Shown here piece after piece: positions 29,930 to 51,335 of a DNA stretch of 64,000 nt. The stretch is taken from NCBI GenBank assembly GCA_977017645.1, contig OZ360231.1, positions 47,802,001-47,866,000 of the forward strand, in the 5' to 3' direction. Every line of letters starts with the position of its first letter. The first letter of the stretch is position 1. The stretch is from Torpedo marmorata. Taxonomy: Eukaryota. The notes below the pieces were generated by a model. The model saw only the letters and a program-made list of their open reading frames with translations, was not told the DNA's origin and searched no databases. The translations under genes and the position numbers were made by a program.

Positions 29930-32369
29930 CTCTACTCTATATTCCTTGTGGTTCCTCAGCCTCTCCTTCCTAAAATCAACAATTAGCACCTTGGTCTTTG
30001 TGACAGTGAGAGAAAGATTGTTATTCTGGCACCACCCAGCCAGAATCTCAATCTCCATCCTGTATGCTGACTCATCATTATCATTTATTCAGCCAACAAT
30101 GGTGGTGTCATCAGCAAATTTGTAGATTGAGTTGGAGCTGAACTTCGATACGCAGTCGTGGGTGTATAATAGAGTCAGCATGGAGGTGGTGATGTTGCCG
30201 ATCCGCACTGATTGCGGTCTGCCAATGAGGAAGTTCAAGGATCCAGTTGCAGAGGGATGGACAGAGTCCTAGGTCTTTTAGTCTCGCTGGTACAATGGTG
30301 CTAAACAGTGAGCTGCAGTCAACGAACACCAACTTAATGATGGTGTTCCACCTAACTTTCATGTCATTGGCAAACCTGGAAACCTGATCCTCTGACCTTG
30401 CCTCTATTTTATACAAGCCACAATAATTGAGGGAAAGACAGCAAATACATGTGGCAAAAAGTACCGTATGTGGTGAATTTGAGTTGCAGGAAATTTTACA
30501 ATGATGTGACAAGCACGATTGTCTTGTCCGTCAGTGTTTTTTGAGAATCCAGATATTCCTGTAATTGATTATATGAAGTGGCCCTTCTTCCATAAAGATG
30601 CATCAAGATGCTGGATAGCAACAAAAAAAAATGAAAAGCCCAGAACATTGGGTACAGGTTTGGTCCACATCAAAAAAAAAAGGATAAACTTGCCATAAAA
30701 GTTCATCAGACCAAAGTCTGAAAAGTTTGTATTGATTCTGGCAATATTCATCAGAGTTCAGAACAACAGAATACAATATTATGAAATGTGCCACATTTTA
30801 AACAGGGTACAGCTGTAAAAGTTGCTGTCTTCAGCAACCAGGGAAAATCCTAATCCCTAGTACTACCTATGAAGTCTGCAAGATCTCCCAGTAACCACGT
30901 GGGTTTCCTCCCATATCCCAACGACATGTGCATATTGTTAATTGGCCACTGTAAATTATTCCTAGAGGGGTGGAAATACAATGAGAGATTGCAAATGCTA
31001 GAATCTGGAGCAAAACACAATCTGCTGGAGGAACTCAGTGGTCAAGTGGCATCAAGTGGGAGAAAAAGGTCAAGACCAAGTCTTACCAAAGGGTTCTGAC
31101 CCAAACCATTTTCTCCCAATGATGCTGCTCGACACACTGAGGTCCTCCAGCAGATTGCGTTTTGTTCCTAGATGGTTGTTGAGTGGTAGAATCAGTAGCT
31201 GGGGATAGGTTGATGGGAATGTGGAAAGATTAGTGCAGGATTGCTATTGATAATGCTGGATGATTGTCCGAGATGCAATGAGCCAAAGTGCCTGCTTCCA
31301 TGTTGCACGCCTCTGTGGCTCCACACACTGCATGCAAGGAGGATGCATCTTCTTTGGAAGCAGGGGTCACAGTCTCAACAGATTGCTTTAGGGCTGAGAT
31401 GAGGAGTAATTTCTTCACTAAGAGGGCAATGAAGCTGTGAAATTCTTTACCACGCAAGGGTATGGAAGACAAATTGCTGAAATACTATTAATCAGTGGAT
31501 AGATTTTTAAATACAAAATAGGGTGTGCAGGAATTATAACATTGAGAGACAAGATTAGATTTCATAGTCAAATGACAGAGAGTGTTTGAAGGGCTGAATG
31601 GCCTATTTGTGTTTCCACTTTTCTTTGAACTCAGAGGACTGGTACATCATTACCTACTATATGTCTGACCTGAGGGGGTCTGCTGCTGGCATGGTGTAAG
31701 GATTGCCATAAGAACATAGGAGCAGAAATAGGCTATTCAGCCCATTGAGTCTTCCCTGCCATTTAATCGTGAGCTGATCCATTTTCCCAACAGCCCCACT
31801 GCCTGGCCTTCTCCCCATAACCTTTAATGCCCTGACTAAATCAAGAATCTATCAATCTCTGCCTTCAAATACACCCAATGACCCTGCCTCCACAAAGGCC
31901 TGTGGCAACAAATTCCACAGATTTACCACCCTCTGGCTGAAGAAATTCCTCCGCATCTCTGTTCCAAGTAGACACCCTTCAATCCTGAAGTTGTGCCCTT
32001 TTGTCCTAGACTCTCCCATCTACTGTCTATGCCTTTCAACATTCTAAATGTTTCAATGAGATCTCTCCCCCCTCCCCCATTCTCCTAAATTCCAACAAAT
32101 GCAGGCCAAGAGCTGTCAAACGCTCCTCATAAGATAACCCTTTCATTTCCGGAATCAACTTTGGGAAACTCCTATGAATCCTCTCCAAAGTCAACACATC
32201 TTTCCTTAAATGAGGCGCCCAAAACTGCTCACAATACTCCAAGTGAGGTCTCACCAGTGCCTTATAAAGCCTCAACATCACATCCTGCTCGTATATTCTA
32301 TTCCTCTTGAAATGAATGCCAGCGTTGCATTTACCTTCTTCACCACTGACTCAACCTGCAAGTTTACCT

Positions 32370-33416
32370 AAAAACCACAAATGCTGGAGAACTCAGCAGG
32401 TCAAACAGTGTCTTTTATGTAGCAAAGGTAGAAATACATAACCGACGTTTCGGGCTTGAGCCCTTCATCAAAGTATGAGAAAATGCCGGCAGGTGTCCGA
32501 ACAAAGGAGTGAGGGGGGAAGGGGGGTGGGAAAGGCAGGAGATGATAGGTGGAGAAAGGAGGGAGGGGACAGCAGCAAAGAGGGGGAGGAGGGATGGCTG
32601 GGTGGGTGGAAAAAAACAGGAAGGACAGGTGAGGGGGGAGGGGAAGGGAACAACAAGCAGGTTTAGTGGAAAGCAGAAAAGTCAATGTTAATGCCATCTG
32701 GCTGGAGAGTGCCGAGACAGAATATGAGATGTTGTTCCTCCGATTTGCGAGTAGTCTGGGTGGGATAGTACATGAGGCCATGGACAGACATGTGAGTGTG
32801 GGAGTGTGACCCAGAATTGAAATGGTTGGCTACTGGGAGGTCGCTGTTGTTGCGGACGGAGAGGAGGTGCTCAGCAAAGCGGTCTCCCAATCTACGACCG
32901 GTCTCTCCAATGTATATAAAGTCACAAAGGGAGCACCCGATGCAGTAAATAAGTCCTCTGGATGTACAAGCCTCATGTACTATCCTACCCAGACTACTCG
33001 CAAATTGGAGGAACAACATCTCATATTCCGTCTCGGCACTCTCCAGCCAGATGGCATTAACATTGACTTTTCTGCTTTCCACTAAACCTGCTTGTTGTTC
33101 CCTTCCCCTCCCCCCTCACCTGTCCTTCCTGTTTTTTTCCACCCACCCAGCCATCCCTCCTCCCGCTCTTTGCTGCTGTCCCCTCCCTCCTTTCTCCACC
33201 TATCATCTCCTGCCTTTCCCACCCCCCTTCCCCCCTCACTCCTTTGTTCGGACGCCTGCCGGCATTTTCTCATACTTTGATGAAGGGCTCAAGCCCGAAA
33301 CGTCGGTTATGTATTTCTACCTTTGCTACATAAAAGACACTGTTTGACCTGCTGAGTTCTCCAGCATTTGTGTTTTTTACTTCATCCACGGTGTCTACAG
33401 ATTTTCGTGTTTACTT
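32370..33416. mobile_element. Palindromic Penelope insertion (two head-to-head 3' ends)
   Basis: Near-perfect ~410-bp inverted arms 32370-32778 and 32970-33378, with a 14-bp TSD CTGCAAGTTTACCT (32356-32369, 33417-33430). Confidence 0.92.
33277..33306 (+). ncRNA. Minimal hammerhead ribozyme-like motif in Penelope tail
   Basis: TTGATGA-A-GGGC TCAA GCCC-GAAACGTC: core boxes around a 4-bp stem II. PLE tails are known to carry minimal hammerheads. Mirror copy at 32442-32471 (minus). Confidence 0.6.
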
Positions 33417-33831
33417 CTGCAAGTTTACCTTCAGGCTATCCTGCACGAGAACTCCCAAGTCCCTTTGCATCTGGGCATTTTCAATTTTCTCCCCATTAAA
33501 AAAAAAATAATCTGACCATTTATTTTTTCTACCAAAGTGCAAGACTGTATTTCATTTGCAACTTCTCTGCCCATTCTCCTAATCTGTCTTAAATCCATCT
33601 GCAGCCTCTGTTTCTTCAACACTACCTGCTCCTCCACCTACCTTTGTATCATCTGCAAACTTGGCCACAAAGCCATTCATTCCATAATCCAAATAATTGA
33701 TATACAAGGTAAAAAGAAGCTGCCCCAACACCAACCCCTGTGGTTCACCACTAACAACTGGCAGCTAACCAGAAGATGATTCCTGCCAATCAACCAATGC
33801 TCTACCAACGATAGTATGTTTTCTGATATAG

Positions 33832-46629: not shown

Positions 46630-46819
46630 CTGAACAAATAAAATTAACAAGAATCATTTAATAAGTAGCAGGAAGAATTTGCAACCTGTTAATCACATTC
46701 CTAATTGATCACTATGGTTTAATCAGATCTTAATTAAACATTCACACTTCATTCCTTCTCTATTACATGAAGTTCAACTGGAATATACCTAGGTTTGCTC
46801 ACAAGATATAGTTTGCAAA

Positions 46820-48340
46820 AGTAAAACACGAGAATCTATAGACACCGTGGTTGAAGTAAAAAACACAAATGCTGGAGAAACTCAGCAGGTCAAAGAGTGT
46901 CTTTTATGTAGCAAAGGTAGAAATACATAACTGACGTTTTGGGCTTGAGCCCTTCATCAAAGTATGAGAAAATGCCGGCAGGCGTCCGAACAAAAGAGTG
47001 AGGTGGGAAGGGGGGTGGAAAAGGCAGGAGATAATAGGTGGAGAAAGGAGGGAGGGGACAGCAGCAAAGAGGGGGAGGAGGGATGGCTGGGTAGGTGGAG
47101 AAAAGCAGGAAGGACAGGTGAGGGGGGAGGGGAAGGGAACGACAAGCAGGTTAGTGGAAAGCAGAAAAGTCAATGTTAATGCCATCTGGCTGGAGAGTGC
47201 TGAGACGGAAAATGAGATGTTGTTCCTCCAATTTGCGGGTAGTCTGGGTGGGATAGTACATAAGGCCATGGACAGACATGTGGGTGTGGGAGTGTGACCC
47301 GGATTTGAAATGGTTGGCTACTGGGAGGTTGCTGTTGTTGCGGACGGAGAGGAGGTGCTCAGCAAAGCGGTCTCCCAATCTACGACCGGTCTCTCCGATG
47401 TAGAGAAAGCCACAAAGGGAGCACCGGATGCAGTAAATAAGTTCTCTGGATGTACAAGTGAAGTGCAGTTTCACTTGGAAGGCCTGTTTGGGGCCCTGGA
47501 CCGTGGTGAGGGGGGAGGTGTGGGCGCAGGTGTTGCACCTCCTGCGGGCACAGGGGAAGGTGCCGGGGGTGCGATGGGTGGGGAGGGATGAGTGCACGAG
47601 TGAATCGCGGAGGGAGCGGTCCCTACGGAGGGCCGAGAGGGGAGGAGAAGGAAAACTGTGTCTAGTGGTGGGATCCTGTAGTAAGTGCCGGAAATTCCGG
47701 CGGATAATGTGTTGGATGCGGAGGCTGGTGGGGTGGTAGGTGAGGATGAGGGGGATTCTATGTTTGTTGTGTCTGGGGGCAGAGTGGGCCAGGGCAGATG
47801 AGCGGGAAATGGAGGAGATGCGGGTGAGGGCTGAGTTGATGGTGGTGGAGGGGAAGCCACGTTTGTGGAAAAAGGCAGACATTTCAGAAGATCTGGACTG
47901 GAACACCTCATCTTGGGAACAGATGCGGCGGAGGCGGAGAAATTGAGAGAAGGGGATGGAATCCTTGCAGGGGACAGGGTATGAGGAAGTGTAGTCCAGA
48001 TAGTTGTGGGAGTTGGAGGGTTTGTTGTAAATGTCAGTGGAAAGCTTGTCTCCTGAGATGGAGACAGAGAGATCCAGGAAGGGGAGAGTGTTATCGGAGA
48101 TGGACCAGGTGAGTTTGAGATCGGGGTGGAAGTTGGATGCGAAGTGGATGAAGTTGACAAGCTCATCGCGGGTGCATGTGGCAGCCCCGATGTAGTCATC
48201 GATATAACGGAGGAAGAGATGAGGGGTCTTGCCTGTGTAGGCTTGCAGCATGGATTGCTCCACAAAGCCCACAAACAGGCAGGCGTAGCTGGGACCCATG
48301 CGGGTACCCATGGCTACTCCTTTGATTTGGAGGAAGTGGG
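46820..48340 (-). mobile_element. Young 5'-truncated Penelope-like element (Neptune-like) in the last traf3ip2l intron
   Basis: 12-bp TSD ATAGTTTGCAAA (46808-46819, 48341-48352), an uninterrupted reading frame and a complete tail. Confidence 0.93.
47151..48340 (-). CDS. Penelope RT C-terminal half + Cys-rich linker + GIY-YIG endonuclease (open, 5'-truncated)
   Basis: GVAMGTRMGPSYA, RYIDDY, CARRRCNTC and LIYCIRCSLCGFLYIGETGRRLGDRFAEH. Confidence 0.88.
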
Positions 48341-49349
48341 ATAGTTTGCAAATGGAAATGCACAATTACATAAATCCTTGATTACATTTGAATTTAGAAC
48401 AACTGACTACAGAATCAACCTCTGGCATTACAGTCAGTCAACTCTCATCAGTCACAATTCCACTGCAAACTTCCAGCAGTGTGCCCACTAATATTCTGCC
48501 CACCTAACAGCTCCCTCATTCACTCCCCAAAGCAGCACATTATTAATCAATGCTTCAAGCTAAATCTACCCTTCTTTAAGTAAATGTCATCCAAGTACAA
48601 ATTTGGATTTTGATTTCCCATATTCTTTTCCTCTAAACACACTCAAGACACATCTCCTAAATTTCCCACACCTATGACAATTGAATTTCTTGTCCTTGGA
48701 AGTATCGGATTTCCACCACAAATGCAAATTGTTGCTGACCTGCAGACCAATTACTGCCATCTCCTCCTCTTCCCCCAACCCCCCACACCTGCCACATACT
48801 GTACCATCTACTTCTCTGCTATGCTCTTTCATTCTTGTACACCCTCAGCCTCTCCTTCGAATCAAGCTACACACTCATTTATCTCAAACACCCTTTTCTG
48901 TCACCTTGTACTCTCCTCAGAATTCACAGTCCTCTTTAAACACTTCACCTATCTTCACTCGATGTTAATAGTTACCTGTTCCAAGAGAAGATTATCACTA
49001 GCCACATAGCCTGCAACTGTCCTCTCAGGTCCTGATCCACCTTGGTCTTCTCTCACGCATCCTTCTTTTTAACTCTCCTGTTACCCAGTTTCTTTCCCCT
49101 TCCCAACCTGGTCCCATCTGCCCACCCTCCCTCTGTTACCTGGCTCCACCCATCACCTTCTTTTCTTATCAGTTTCATAATCTGCTGTCCTTTGTTATCT
49201 CCACTTATCACCTCCCAGCCCTTACAACAATCTCCACCCTTCCCTTCTCCACACAGCTCCATCTGCATTTCAACTGCTCCTTATATGGGTCCACATAACT
49301 TGCCAGCTCCTGCCTCACCGTCTGCCCTCCTCACCTCTTTACAATGGCT

Positions 49350-49555
49350 CAAACAGTGTCTTTTATGTAGCAAAAGTAGAAATACATAACCGACGTTTCG
49401 GGCTTGAGCCCTTCATCAAAGTATCAAGCCCGAAACGTCGGTTATGTATTTCTACTTTTGCTACATAAAAGACACTGTTTGACCTGCTGAGTTTCTCCAG
49501 CATGTGTTTTTTACTTCAACCACGGTGTCTACAGATTTTCGTGTTTTACTTTTCA
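49350..49555. mobile_element. Mini palindromic Penelope tail insertion inside an older Penelope tail
   Basis: Perfect 59-bp arms 49349-49407 and 49424-49482, with an 11-bp TSD TTACAATGGCT (49339-49349, 49556-49566). Confidence 0.9.
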
Positions 49556-49931
49556 TTACAATGGCTACCTGCCCTTTACACTTTCAGTCCTGATGCAAGG
49601 TCTCGACCGATATGTCAACCATCTCTTTGCCTCCCAGCTGCCTGACCCGCTGAGTTGCTCCAGAAGCTCGTTTTATGCCAGACACCAGCATCTGCAGTGC
49701 CTTGTATCTTCGTTGCTAGGTATTTCTCTGCATTTCTAACACATGGGGGGAAAAAGTAAAGCAAACGAAACATGACTGGCTCCTGACAAATGCAAATCTT
49801 GATTCAGTCAAGCTGGAAGAAAAGCAGTCCTCAATATTTTTTTATTATGGCATCTCGCAACCAAGCCAAATTCAGTCTAATGGTAAATAATTGGAGTCAT
49901 GCTCGAGAAGACAAGCAGTGTTACTTTAGGA

Positions 49932-50220
49932 CAGTGGTTTTCAAACTGCCCCCCTGAACTCACATTCCACTTTAAGCAATCCCTATGCCAGAGGTGCTCT
50001 GTGATTAGTAAGGGATTACTTCAGGTGGTATGTGAGTGGAAAGAAAAAGTTTGAAAACCACTGTTTTAATCGTACCTAATTGACGGTTTCATAACTCCAA
50101 AGGAAATGAGCCAATGACAATTTTTCTCAATCAAAATATTTCAGTAACAATTGGGTCTAGAGCCAATTGAGGTTCTCAACCTTCCCTTCCCACTCACATA
50201 CCACCTTAAGCAATCCCTGC
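49932..50220. mobile_element. Truncated dimeric hAT MITE, opposite orientation
   Basis: CAGTGGTTTTCAAAC terminus and the reverse complement of the spacer seen at ~33963-34074. Confidence 0.8.
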
Positions 50221-50289
50221 CAGACACTTAAGCCCCTTTTATACTGCAAAGAAAGCGACGTTAAAGATAGAACATTTCTGTCTTTAAGT

Positions 50290-50765
50290 CGCCTCACTTA
50301 CCTTTATAAAAATGCAGATGGTGGATTGCCAAGGCGTAATCCGAAATGCCTAGGAGGTAGACACAGAGGTGGAGCGAATCTCTCCACCTCCTCTATAAAA
50401 AGAAAGCAGCCTAAAGCGTCTGGCAAGGGGCGGTCTGATGACGTCGCGATGACGCCTTCAGCCCCGCGACCCAGGAGAGTTGATCTATATGGCAATGGCC
50501 GTCTTCGTTACCCATAATCCCCCACGCAGCTGGAACCGCTCTGCGTTTCCCTGACGCTGGCACTGACAGAGCGGTTCCAGCTGCGTGGGGGATTATGGGT
50601 AACGAAGACGGCCATTGCTCGGTGCATATGTTTGACTTCACGGCGGCGGGCGGCGCTACTGCACCACTCGCTCCGCCTCCCTATGATCGGATGCCGGCTC
50701 CTGACCCAGCTCTGCATAAAGACAATGCTGGAAACGTCATGTAGGTCTCCATAAAAAGTAAGTTC
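50290..50765. promoter_or_regulatory. CpG-rich bidirectional promoter-like module with inverted ZNF143/Staf sites
   Basis: GC box at 50427, TGACGTC at 50439, TACCCATAATCCCCCACG at 50509-50526 and its mirror, and outward-facing donors AAG|GTAAGT (minus, 50302) and AAA|GTAAGT (plus, 50757). Confidence 0.65.
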
Positions 50766-51124
50766 ACCTTTTTTTTTTTTTTCTTGAGCCTTCTTTATTG
50801 CGGGGTTGCACCATAAAAAGGGCTTATAACTCTGAAAGTCCCCCTCTACATCAGTTTCTTCTTTGCAAAACGCCATGACTCCCATGTCCATGAAAGTACT
50901 TTTGGACATATGCCCAAATACCTCACTTGGCTCCGTCTGCCCGTCTTTGTGTAATAATGTTCTAGTAATAGCCCTTGGGATATTTTGCATTTTGAAGGAG
51001 TACATAAATCACAAACATAGAGCTTCATTCCTTCAAATTTTGCTTGATGGAACTTTTAAAAAGGATTTAAATAATCCCATTTGAAAAACAATCTGACATC
51101 TTAAATTTATTAATATTGCTAAAT

Positions 51125-51335
51125 TTTAATTTTTTAAAATTTAGACATACAGCACGGTAACAGGCCCTTTCAGCCCATGAGCCCGTGCCGCCCAAATTCA
51201 CCCAACTGACCTACCACCCTGGCAAGGTTTGAACAGTGGGAGGAAACTGGAGAACCCAGAGGAAATCCACGCAGACACGGGGAGAATGTACAAACTCCGG
51301 ACGCTGGCGCTGTAATATCGTTGCTCTAACCGTGC
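51125..51335 (-). mobile_element. V-SINE
   Basis: V-core and CR1-like tail, complementary to the copy at 28888. Confidence 0.8.

Follow-up and report, generated by a model that had tools for sequence, protein, structure and literature searches.

The hairpin at positions 49339 to 49566 of the window (the 64,000-nt stretch of the Torpedo marmorata genome that was analysed, contig OZ360231.1) is, to judge from its sequence, the 3′ pLTR of an endonuclease (EN)-bearing, Neptune-type Penelope-like element (PLE), inserted head-to-head and 5′-truncated in both arms. Twin priming is its probable origin: in one insertion event, both 3′ ends of a staggered break of about 14 nt would have primed separately on the element RNA. 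Taken singly the locus is unremarkable: there are well over a thousand stubs like it, and the architecture is of the type published for EN+ PLEs. The stub population constitutes a large natural data set on how PLEs form inverted repeats and tails. Its statistics (one tailed and one untailed end, unique sequence in both arms, and a stall zone blind to the cleavage site) speak more for twin priming than for the self-priming proposed in print, and they yield direct predictions for the in vitro system already available.

In the pLTR numbering used throughout, +1 is the T of TGATGA. The insert consists of an inverted copy of −5 to +70, one shared base (49424) and a forward copy of +12 to +141. The inverted arm (49350 to 49424, minus strand, pLTR −5 to +69/70) terminates at a minor start site, the majority of inverted arms reaching to near +103. 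It carries a complete minimal hammerhead-like motif (49386 to 49424, minus strand), recognized from sequence and fold and sense on the strand of the host gene, with U at core position 3 and a predicted cut between 49392 and 49391. Core positions of this motif are numbered as is usual for hammerheads and as in passages of PMC4209133. The forward arm (49424 to 49552, plus strand, +12 to +141) is without the hammerhead core and has a 2-nt deletion near +91; it includes the one-sided PLE 'tail' (49515 to 49552, plus strand, about +105 to +141), which lies between the two main end sites. The plus strand of the insert is without a hammerhead core, and the complete motif is present on the gene's strand alone. 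At the head-to-head seam (49424, microhomology of 1), −5 of one arm meets +12 of the other, at least 15 nt 5′ of the predicted cleavage site (+27/+28).

The initial annotation had described 49349–49407 and 49424–49482 as exact reverse complements, and all 59 of 59 bases agree. The 16-nt 'loop' between them is the continuation of the inverted arm up to the seam at 49424, with no spacer. The fold of the hairpin has a z value against shuffles of −17 on the plus and −18 on the minus strand, and the hammerhead-like motif is predicted to be locked inside the perfect hairpin. Both arms contain CAAAAGTAGA, and the copies at 32423, 33316 and 46912 have CAAAGGTAGA, which confirms the earlier observation of a variant common to the arms and different from the copies at 32.4, 33.3 and 46.9 kb. 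The shared rare variant, C44T, is located at 49375 (minus strand) in the left arm and at 49456 in the right arm. The focal arms belong to the oldest haplotype, with about 1.1% private changes per arm. By our own arithmetic about one pair in four should therefore be identical, and the 59-bp perfection is unremarkable.

An exact 11-bp duplication (49339–49349 and 49556–49566) encloses 206 bp, as originally annotated. When extended, it becomes a duplication of 14 bp with one mismatch (49336–49349 and 49553–49566), the last 11 bp of the left copy being exact. Among 78 palindromes of the family, the TSD was 14 bp in 39, 14–16 bp in 64 and 11 bp in none. A TSD of 14 bp rather than 11 bp is thus likelier at the focal locus, because 14 bp is the family mode and the sister insertion at 32.4 kb has 14 bp. 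Older repeat copies were searched for the empty site of the focal insertion and it was not recovered, so that the choice between 11 and 14 bp rests on the family mode.

The sequence of the insert is that of the 3′ end of the element at 46.8–48.3 kb, in whose open frame an RT motif and a GIY-YIG match (E 3.7e-4) were found. This 5′-truncated copy (46815 to 48342, minus strand) comprises the C-terminal part of RT, a CX4CxxC linker, GIY-YIG, pLTR and tail. A genomic copy, L085, has a 934-aa open frame with matches to RVT_1 (E 4.9e-6) and GIY-YIG (E 0.003), both below the Pfam curated cut-offs. RT and, at the C terminus, GIY-YIG in a single ORF are thus found in the parent family and are absent from the stub itself. 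The CX4CxxC motif lies in the RT-EN linker, upstream of GIY. According to the part of PMC8557442 that treats the linker, a CX2-5CxxC motif marks Neptune/Nematis rather than Penelope/Poseidon, and it points to the Neptune/Nematis clades for the parent family; a Poseidon assignment was dropped for this reason. In near-full-length copies the tail leads directly into the ORF (591 exact copies of the junction), a partial-tandem pLTR being present upstream of the ORF. Since the tail is continuous with the ORF, the insertion ends are internal to the RNA. The family is abundant, with 30,596 exact copies of a tail 30-mer in the 6.2-Gb genome and at least 1,701 palindromes whose seam is near the focal one (1,667 + 31 + 3). 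A young haplotype (42T, deletion at 80, 90T), carried by L157, L160, L165, L196, L213, L216, L221, L228, L229 and others, shows 1 private change over 1,524 bp, pointing to activity that is very recent or still under way. One palindromic insertion was seen in at least 14 near-identical copies, all between the same flanking sequences, on C79 of G000 (about 4.85–7.11 Mb) and on C1262, and is read as a segmental or tandem duplication.

Insertion ends were analysed in two samples. The tail-selected sample, unbiased for the seam, started from the first 100 occurrences of the tail 30-mer (3 unparsed and 2 duplicates dropped, n = 95). The seam-selected sample consisted of 80 palindromes, of which 2 were dropped as duplicates (n = 78), the focal locus being kept apart. 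The first 30 matches to the focal sequence are biased to its seam and variant and were excluded from all rates. An adjacent inverted segment was found in 36 of the 95 tail-selected insertions (31 parsed, 5 by eye), and where parsed inverted segments ended in the tail region, 21 of 26 did so at +97 to +108. End pairing in the 78 palindromes was regular: 65 paired an end at +95 to +111 with one at +130 to +156, in 10 the tail end was combined with a shorter one, one was two-tailed and two were of other kinds. The tail, about 37 nt long in the family, was present on just one arm in 75 of the 78. Both main ends (about +103 and about +140) are located at a GTGTTTT(TT)ACTT motif. The focal locus, like L011 and L204, belongs to a minority class with a short end at +69/70, at the similar motif TGTTTGAC.

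In the focal stub, −5 to +11 is present in the inverted arm alone and +71 to +141 in the tailed arm alone. Because both arms include sequence of their own, neither was copied from the other, and separate priming, one event per target strand, is therefore likely; we infer this priming step from genomic end patterns. Separate priming of both strands also fits the behaviour of PAc, the anole PLE, for which PMC11167929 describes in its in vitro sections cutting and extension of both target strands, two internal start sites that bound the tail, and a hammerhead cleavage that is dispensable. Against twin priming, 28 of 78 seams have extra or mismatched bases, the focal seam has just 1 nt of microhomology and its inverted arm is at the minor end site, and the predicted fold of the stall zone is unexceptional (z = −0.7). 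In addition, the start-site data given in PMC11167929, obtained with the Penelope/Poseidon clade, revealed no difference between top and bottom strands. Among the papers listed by searches of the openly accessible literature for twin priming in PLEs, none was found to state the model.

The interpretation given in PMC3846280 and PMC8557442, where they discuss such insertions, is that a single cDNA folds back and self-primes, one arm copying the other, with an endonuclease trimming the short end; PMC3846280 proposes self-priming on an antisense template. We consider this scheme improbable here, although it accounts directly for variants common to both arms, and some seams are centred on self-palindromes such as TGCCGGCA (6 of the 15 loci fetched at that anchor). 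At the focal and many other loci the untailed arm has upstream sequence missing from the tailed arm, by up to about 1.9 kb, and the tailed arm holds a tail that is missing from the untailed one. In the tail-selected sample, the untailed arm was longer by more than 100 nt in 7 of 31 parsed inversions and the tailed arm in 3 of 31, an outcome that copying of one arm from the other could not produce. Which arm reaches further at the seam had no regular bias in 77 palindromes (28 versus 32, with 17 equal). At loci where each arm has unique sequence, the two mechanisms invoked in these papers, self-priming and endonuclease resolution, are disfavoured by this pattern. A different alternative is that transcripts start in the pLTR at about −40 to +20 and that the short arms are strong-stop-like cDNAs which ran off the RNA 5′ end. 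In its favour, the tail–ORF junction is at the 5′ end of a unit-length transcript, and promoters in pLTRs are described in the relevant parts of PMC8557442 and PMC3846280. However, 17 of the 22 upstream pLTRs that reach +27 continue beyond −41, a stop rate of 23% (1 of 30 loci in this sample unparsed) that is like the 27% of terminal pLTRs (23 of 86). Judged from these copies, a fixed RNA 5′ end is unlikely to be the cause of the stall zone, and run-off as a whole has as small a chance of being correct as fold-back.

With twin priming as the preferred reading, the two cDNAs could have been copied from one RNA or from two. Variants common to both arms of a pair numbered 104, compared to 39 in shuffled pairs (maximum of 57 in 5,000), and 101 compared to 38 when CpG sites were left out. 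At five diagnostic sites the variant was in both arms 91 times and in a single arm twice. These sequence comparisons support descent of both arms from one template lineage. The haplotypes are stratified by age, with private changes of 1.14%, 0.73%, 0.36% and 0.07% from oldest to young (L164, of a divergent subfamily, being left out of this analysis), and subfamily succession alone, with two different RNAs, would therefore also give concordance. C44T was absent from the forward arms of the family (0 of 91). Genome-wide, it was two-sided at 3 loci and one-sided in 31 matches (about 17 independent, 14 being one duplicated segment), with 1,667 matches lacking it. Independent mutation would give 0.08–0.2 two-sided loci, and the probability of at least 2 with the focal locus excluded is 0.003–0.02. 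The sharing of C44T between arms is thus probably real, by way of a variant-bearing source copy or later conversion. Being usually one-sided, C44T is mostly a post-insertion mutation, and the two-sided cases could be conversion.

Twin priming from two separate RNAs, with the common C44T arising by later conversion or by template switching between arms, is possible though rather unlikely. Age stratification of the haplotypes and the mostly one-sided occurrence of C44T are in its favour, as is the focal copy, whose arms are identical despite its oldest haplotype and its TSD mismatch. Against it, private arm differences persist (52 in 4,345 compared bp), so that conversion is not pervasive, and at the seam the two arms often reach to positions near each other. 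Of the earlier proposal that both arms were copied from the same RNA in one event, the single insertion event stands. A single RNA molecule is likely, tempered by the age-stratified subfamilies and by possible conversion between arms.

The ribozyme structure had also been proposed to mark where cDNA synthesis stops or switches. Mapping of the mini-palindrome junctions, suggested at the same time, gave a cluster which overlaps the hammerhead but forms a broad zone. With equal-length anchors and gap range, 659 seams were counted at about −11 to +19 (an undercount, the anchor there being CpG-rich), 662 at −41 to −11 and 166 at +27 to +57. In the tail-selected sample, 5′ ends were 3.7-fold enriched in −41 to +27 (23 of 95 ends, p = 2e-6, the interval being chosen post hoc), and those of non-inverted copies were also enriched there (2.5-fold, p = 0.017). 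Microhomology of at least 2 nt was present in 31 of 50 clean joins, compared to about 14% expected, and exact seam positions follow inverted microhomologies. The supply of inverted 4-mers was rejected as the sole cause of the zone, there being 5 in +27 to +57 and 3 in −11 to +19.

Self-cleavage, or the ribozyme fold itself, as what fixes the stop or switch point is unlikely on balance. In its support, the zone starts just 5′ of the predicted cleavage site, 12 ends fall in −11 to +27 versus 1 in +28 to +56, seams in the ribozyme 5′ half far outnumber those just downstream (the 659 and 166 above), and one predicted fold encloses about −19 to +30 as a single domain. On the other side, only 1 of 120 arms begins at +26 to +30, around the predicted cleavage site, and the 662 seams upstream of the motif equal those within its 5′ half. 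The 146 pooled 5′ ends peak at −50 to −1 (28 of 113 at risk) versus 0 to 49 (18 of 131), that is, upstream of the motif. The family majority has U at core position 3 with G8, where the core of an active hammerhead (CUGANGA...GAAA...UH) has a C3–G8 pair; cleavage was dispensable in the in vitro work described in PMC11167929. A cluster of 7 5′ ends also lies at an unrelated 8-bp hairpin within the ORF, at about −505 to −517 (L085 is an example, and the seam at 32.9 kb in the window is close), possibly a second stall site unrelated to the ribozyme. Cleavage as the cause of seam position is disfavoured, and the ribozyme region may contribute structurally. Enrichment of seams does extend over the hammerhead's 5′ half, but the ribozyme is not supported as their specific marker. 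An Rfam scan of the 64-kb window gave no matches at the gathering score.

An independently mobile mini-element (MITE, SINE or retrozyme) or a selected small-RNA locus is a very improbable identity for the focal hairpin. Many copies with one junction, taken at the outset as the sign of a MITE or SINE family, were not found: 34 seam classes were present in 49 loci, and ends and TSDs vary. Some seams do recur, the 0/+12 seam in 7 of 49 loci and the focal seam in 5 of the best 30 matches, and a long perfect hairpin within an intron could suit a small-RNA locus. However, the 0/+12 seam, the commonest and one with 4 nt of microhomology, has the tail on either arm (4 versus 3) and occurs in different haplotypes, and the focal seam was seen in 0 of 49 loci of the seam-selected sample. 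The 14-bp TSDs, the asymmetric and variable outer ends and the absence of tandem units also argue against a mini-element. Given the diverse seams, the tail on either arm and the mixed haplotypes, the stubs are therefore rebuilt at each landing and have not spread as a unit. A non-LTR retrozyme, as described in the portion of bioRxiv 10.64898/2026.07.22.740005 that defines it, consists of tandem head-to-tail units with a hammerhead in each, whereas the focal insert is a single head-to-head unit with one complete motif. Contigs of 4 RNA runs over 48900–50000 covered mainly repeats, and no listed piece spans the locus, which makes them uninformative on expression or editing. Among RNA records, none was listed for the pLTR–ORF junction. 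The proposed pre-miRNA or siRNA role is conjectural, and nothing sets the focal locus apart from the other hairpins of its type, of which there are at least 1,700. Perfect hairpins in introns, if numerous, would supply dsRNA, for which a function is speculative.

The following sequence of steps would produce the stub. Each 3′ end of a target break staggered by about 14 nt would prime reverse transcription on the element RNA. The two ends would mark two internal RT start sites, at about +103 and about +140, the focal copy having used the minor site near +70. Both cDNAs would be prone to stall between about −41 and +27, a zone which covers the 5′ half of the hammerhead and some 30 nt upstream. 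Joining of the stalled cDNA 3′ ends would often make use of a short inverted microhomology, and each cDNA would serve as template for completing the other. The hairpin would be a by-product of insertion, with no role for ribozyme cleavage in setting the seam. Both cDNAs were probably made from one RNA held by a protein dimer. More tentatively, and with somewhat less than even confidence, we propose that a PLE protein dimer makes two copies of one RNA simultaneously. The two fixed start sites, about 37 nt apart, would be divided between the subunits, as would the two strands of the 14-nt staggered cut; the trailing polymerase would displace the leading cDNA, and the cDNAs would be joined where they stalled around a folded, non-cleaving hammerhead domain. 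If true, this scheme on its own would explain three features of the whole class: tail, inverted pLTR and palindromic seam.

LINE-1 also forms 5′ inversions by twin priming, in which two target ends prime two cDNAs that are joined at microhomology within one TSD. L1 primes at its poly(A) and at a variable internal site, and the two segments barely overlap. Here, the two internal sites are fixed and the overlapping segments give a palindrome. Among PLEs the closest are EN+ insertions with an inverted 5′-truncated pLTR, a one-sided tail of 30–40 nt and a TSD, described for Pen2a_Av of Adineta in PMC3846280 and also in PMC8557442. The focal stub is alike in its head-to-head inverted copy at the 5′ end, the tail on one end, the TSD around the whole unit and the palindrome at the seam. 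It differs in that no more than the pLTR end is left in either arm, and the TSD is about 14 bp versus 8–10 bp.

PAc (Poseidon of Anolis), as presented in the mechanistic part of PMC11167929, is alike in that both strands are cut and extended from two internal sites bounding the tail, a feature that we infer for the focal family. It belongs to another clade, the ORF of the focal family having the CX2-5CxxC linker of Neptune/Nematis. Its description leaves inverted arms unexplained and reports no strand difference in start site, whereas in the focal family almost all palindromes combine one end of each kind. Minimal hammerheads in PLE pLTRs, including opposite-strand pairs 100–700 bp apart, are noted in passages of PMC4209133. 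The focal motif resembles these in its type I minimal form, palindromic helix III and pLTR location, and differs in its U3 with G8 core and in being a single complete motif, predicted to be locked in a hairpin.

The host intron (46630 to 51590, minus strand, GT..AG) is flanked by consecutive SEFIR-coding exons of a TRAF3IP2-family gene. The two minus-strand exons match human TRAF3IP2 residues 134–159 (E 1e-4) and 159–202 (E 5e-12); they were found directly, a SEFIR family search of the genome having given 10 scored candidates with the window absent among them. The annotated host, traf3ip2l, is thus correct at the level of the family, paralogue aside. The 46815–48342 copy and the focal stub are two copies of one young family, 2.4 kb apart in a single intron, and longer-range pairing between them in the pre-mRNA is possible. 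The same family has a larger head-to-head insertion at 32356 to 33430, with 410-nt arms and a 14-bp TSD. The focal stub seems to be nested in an older, diverged PLE 3′ end (49060–49348 and 49567–49710; weak matches at two loci), some 25 bp upstream of the hammerhead-like motif (CTGATG...CGA) belonging to that element. A second perfect hairpin of the intron, at 50492–50618, has 52-bp arms (by eye) and a 23-nt loop in a CpG-rich stretch. Its outer ends were confirmed; L275 and L293 contain matches of about 89%, pointing to a hairpin repeat that is dispersed. Further along the window, at 52706–56245, the ORF list alone reveals broken gag-, protease-, RT- and integrase-like frames of an LTR retrotransposon.
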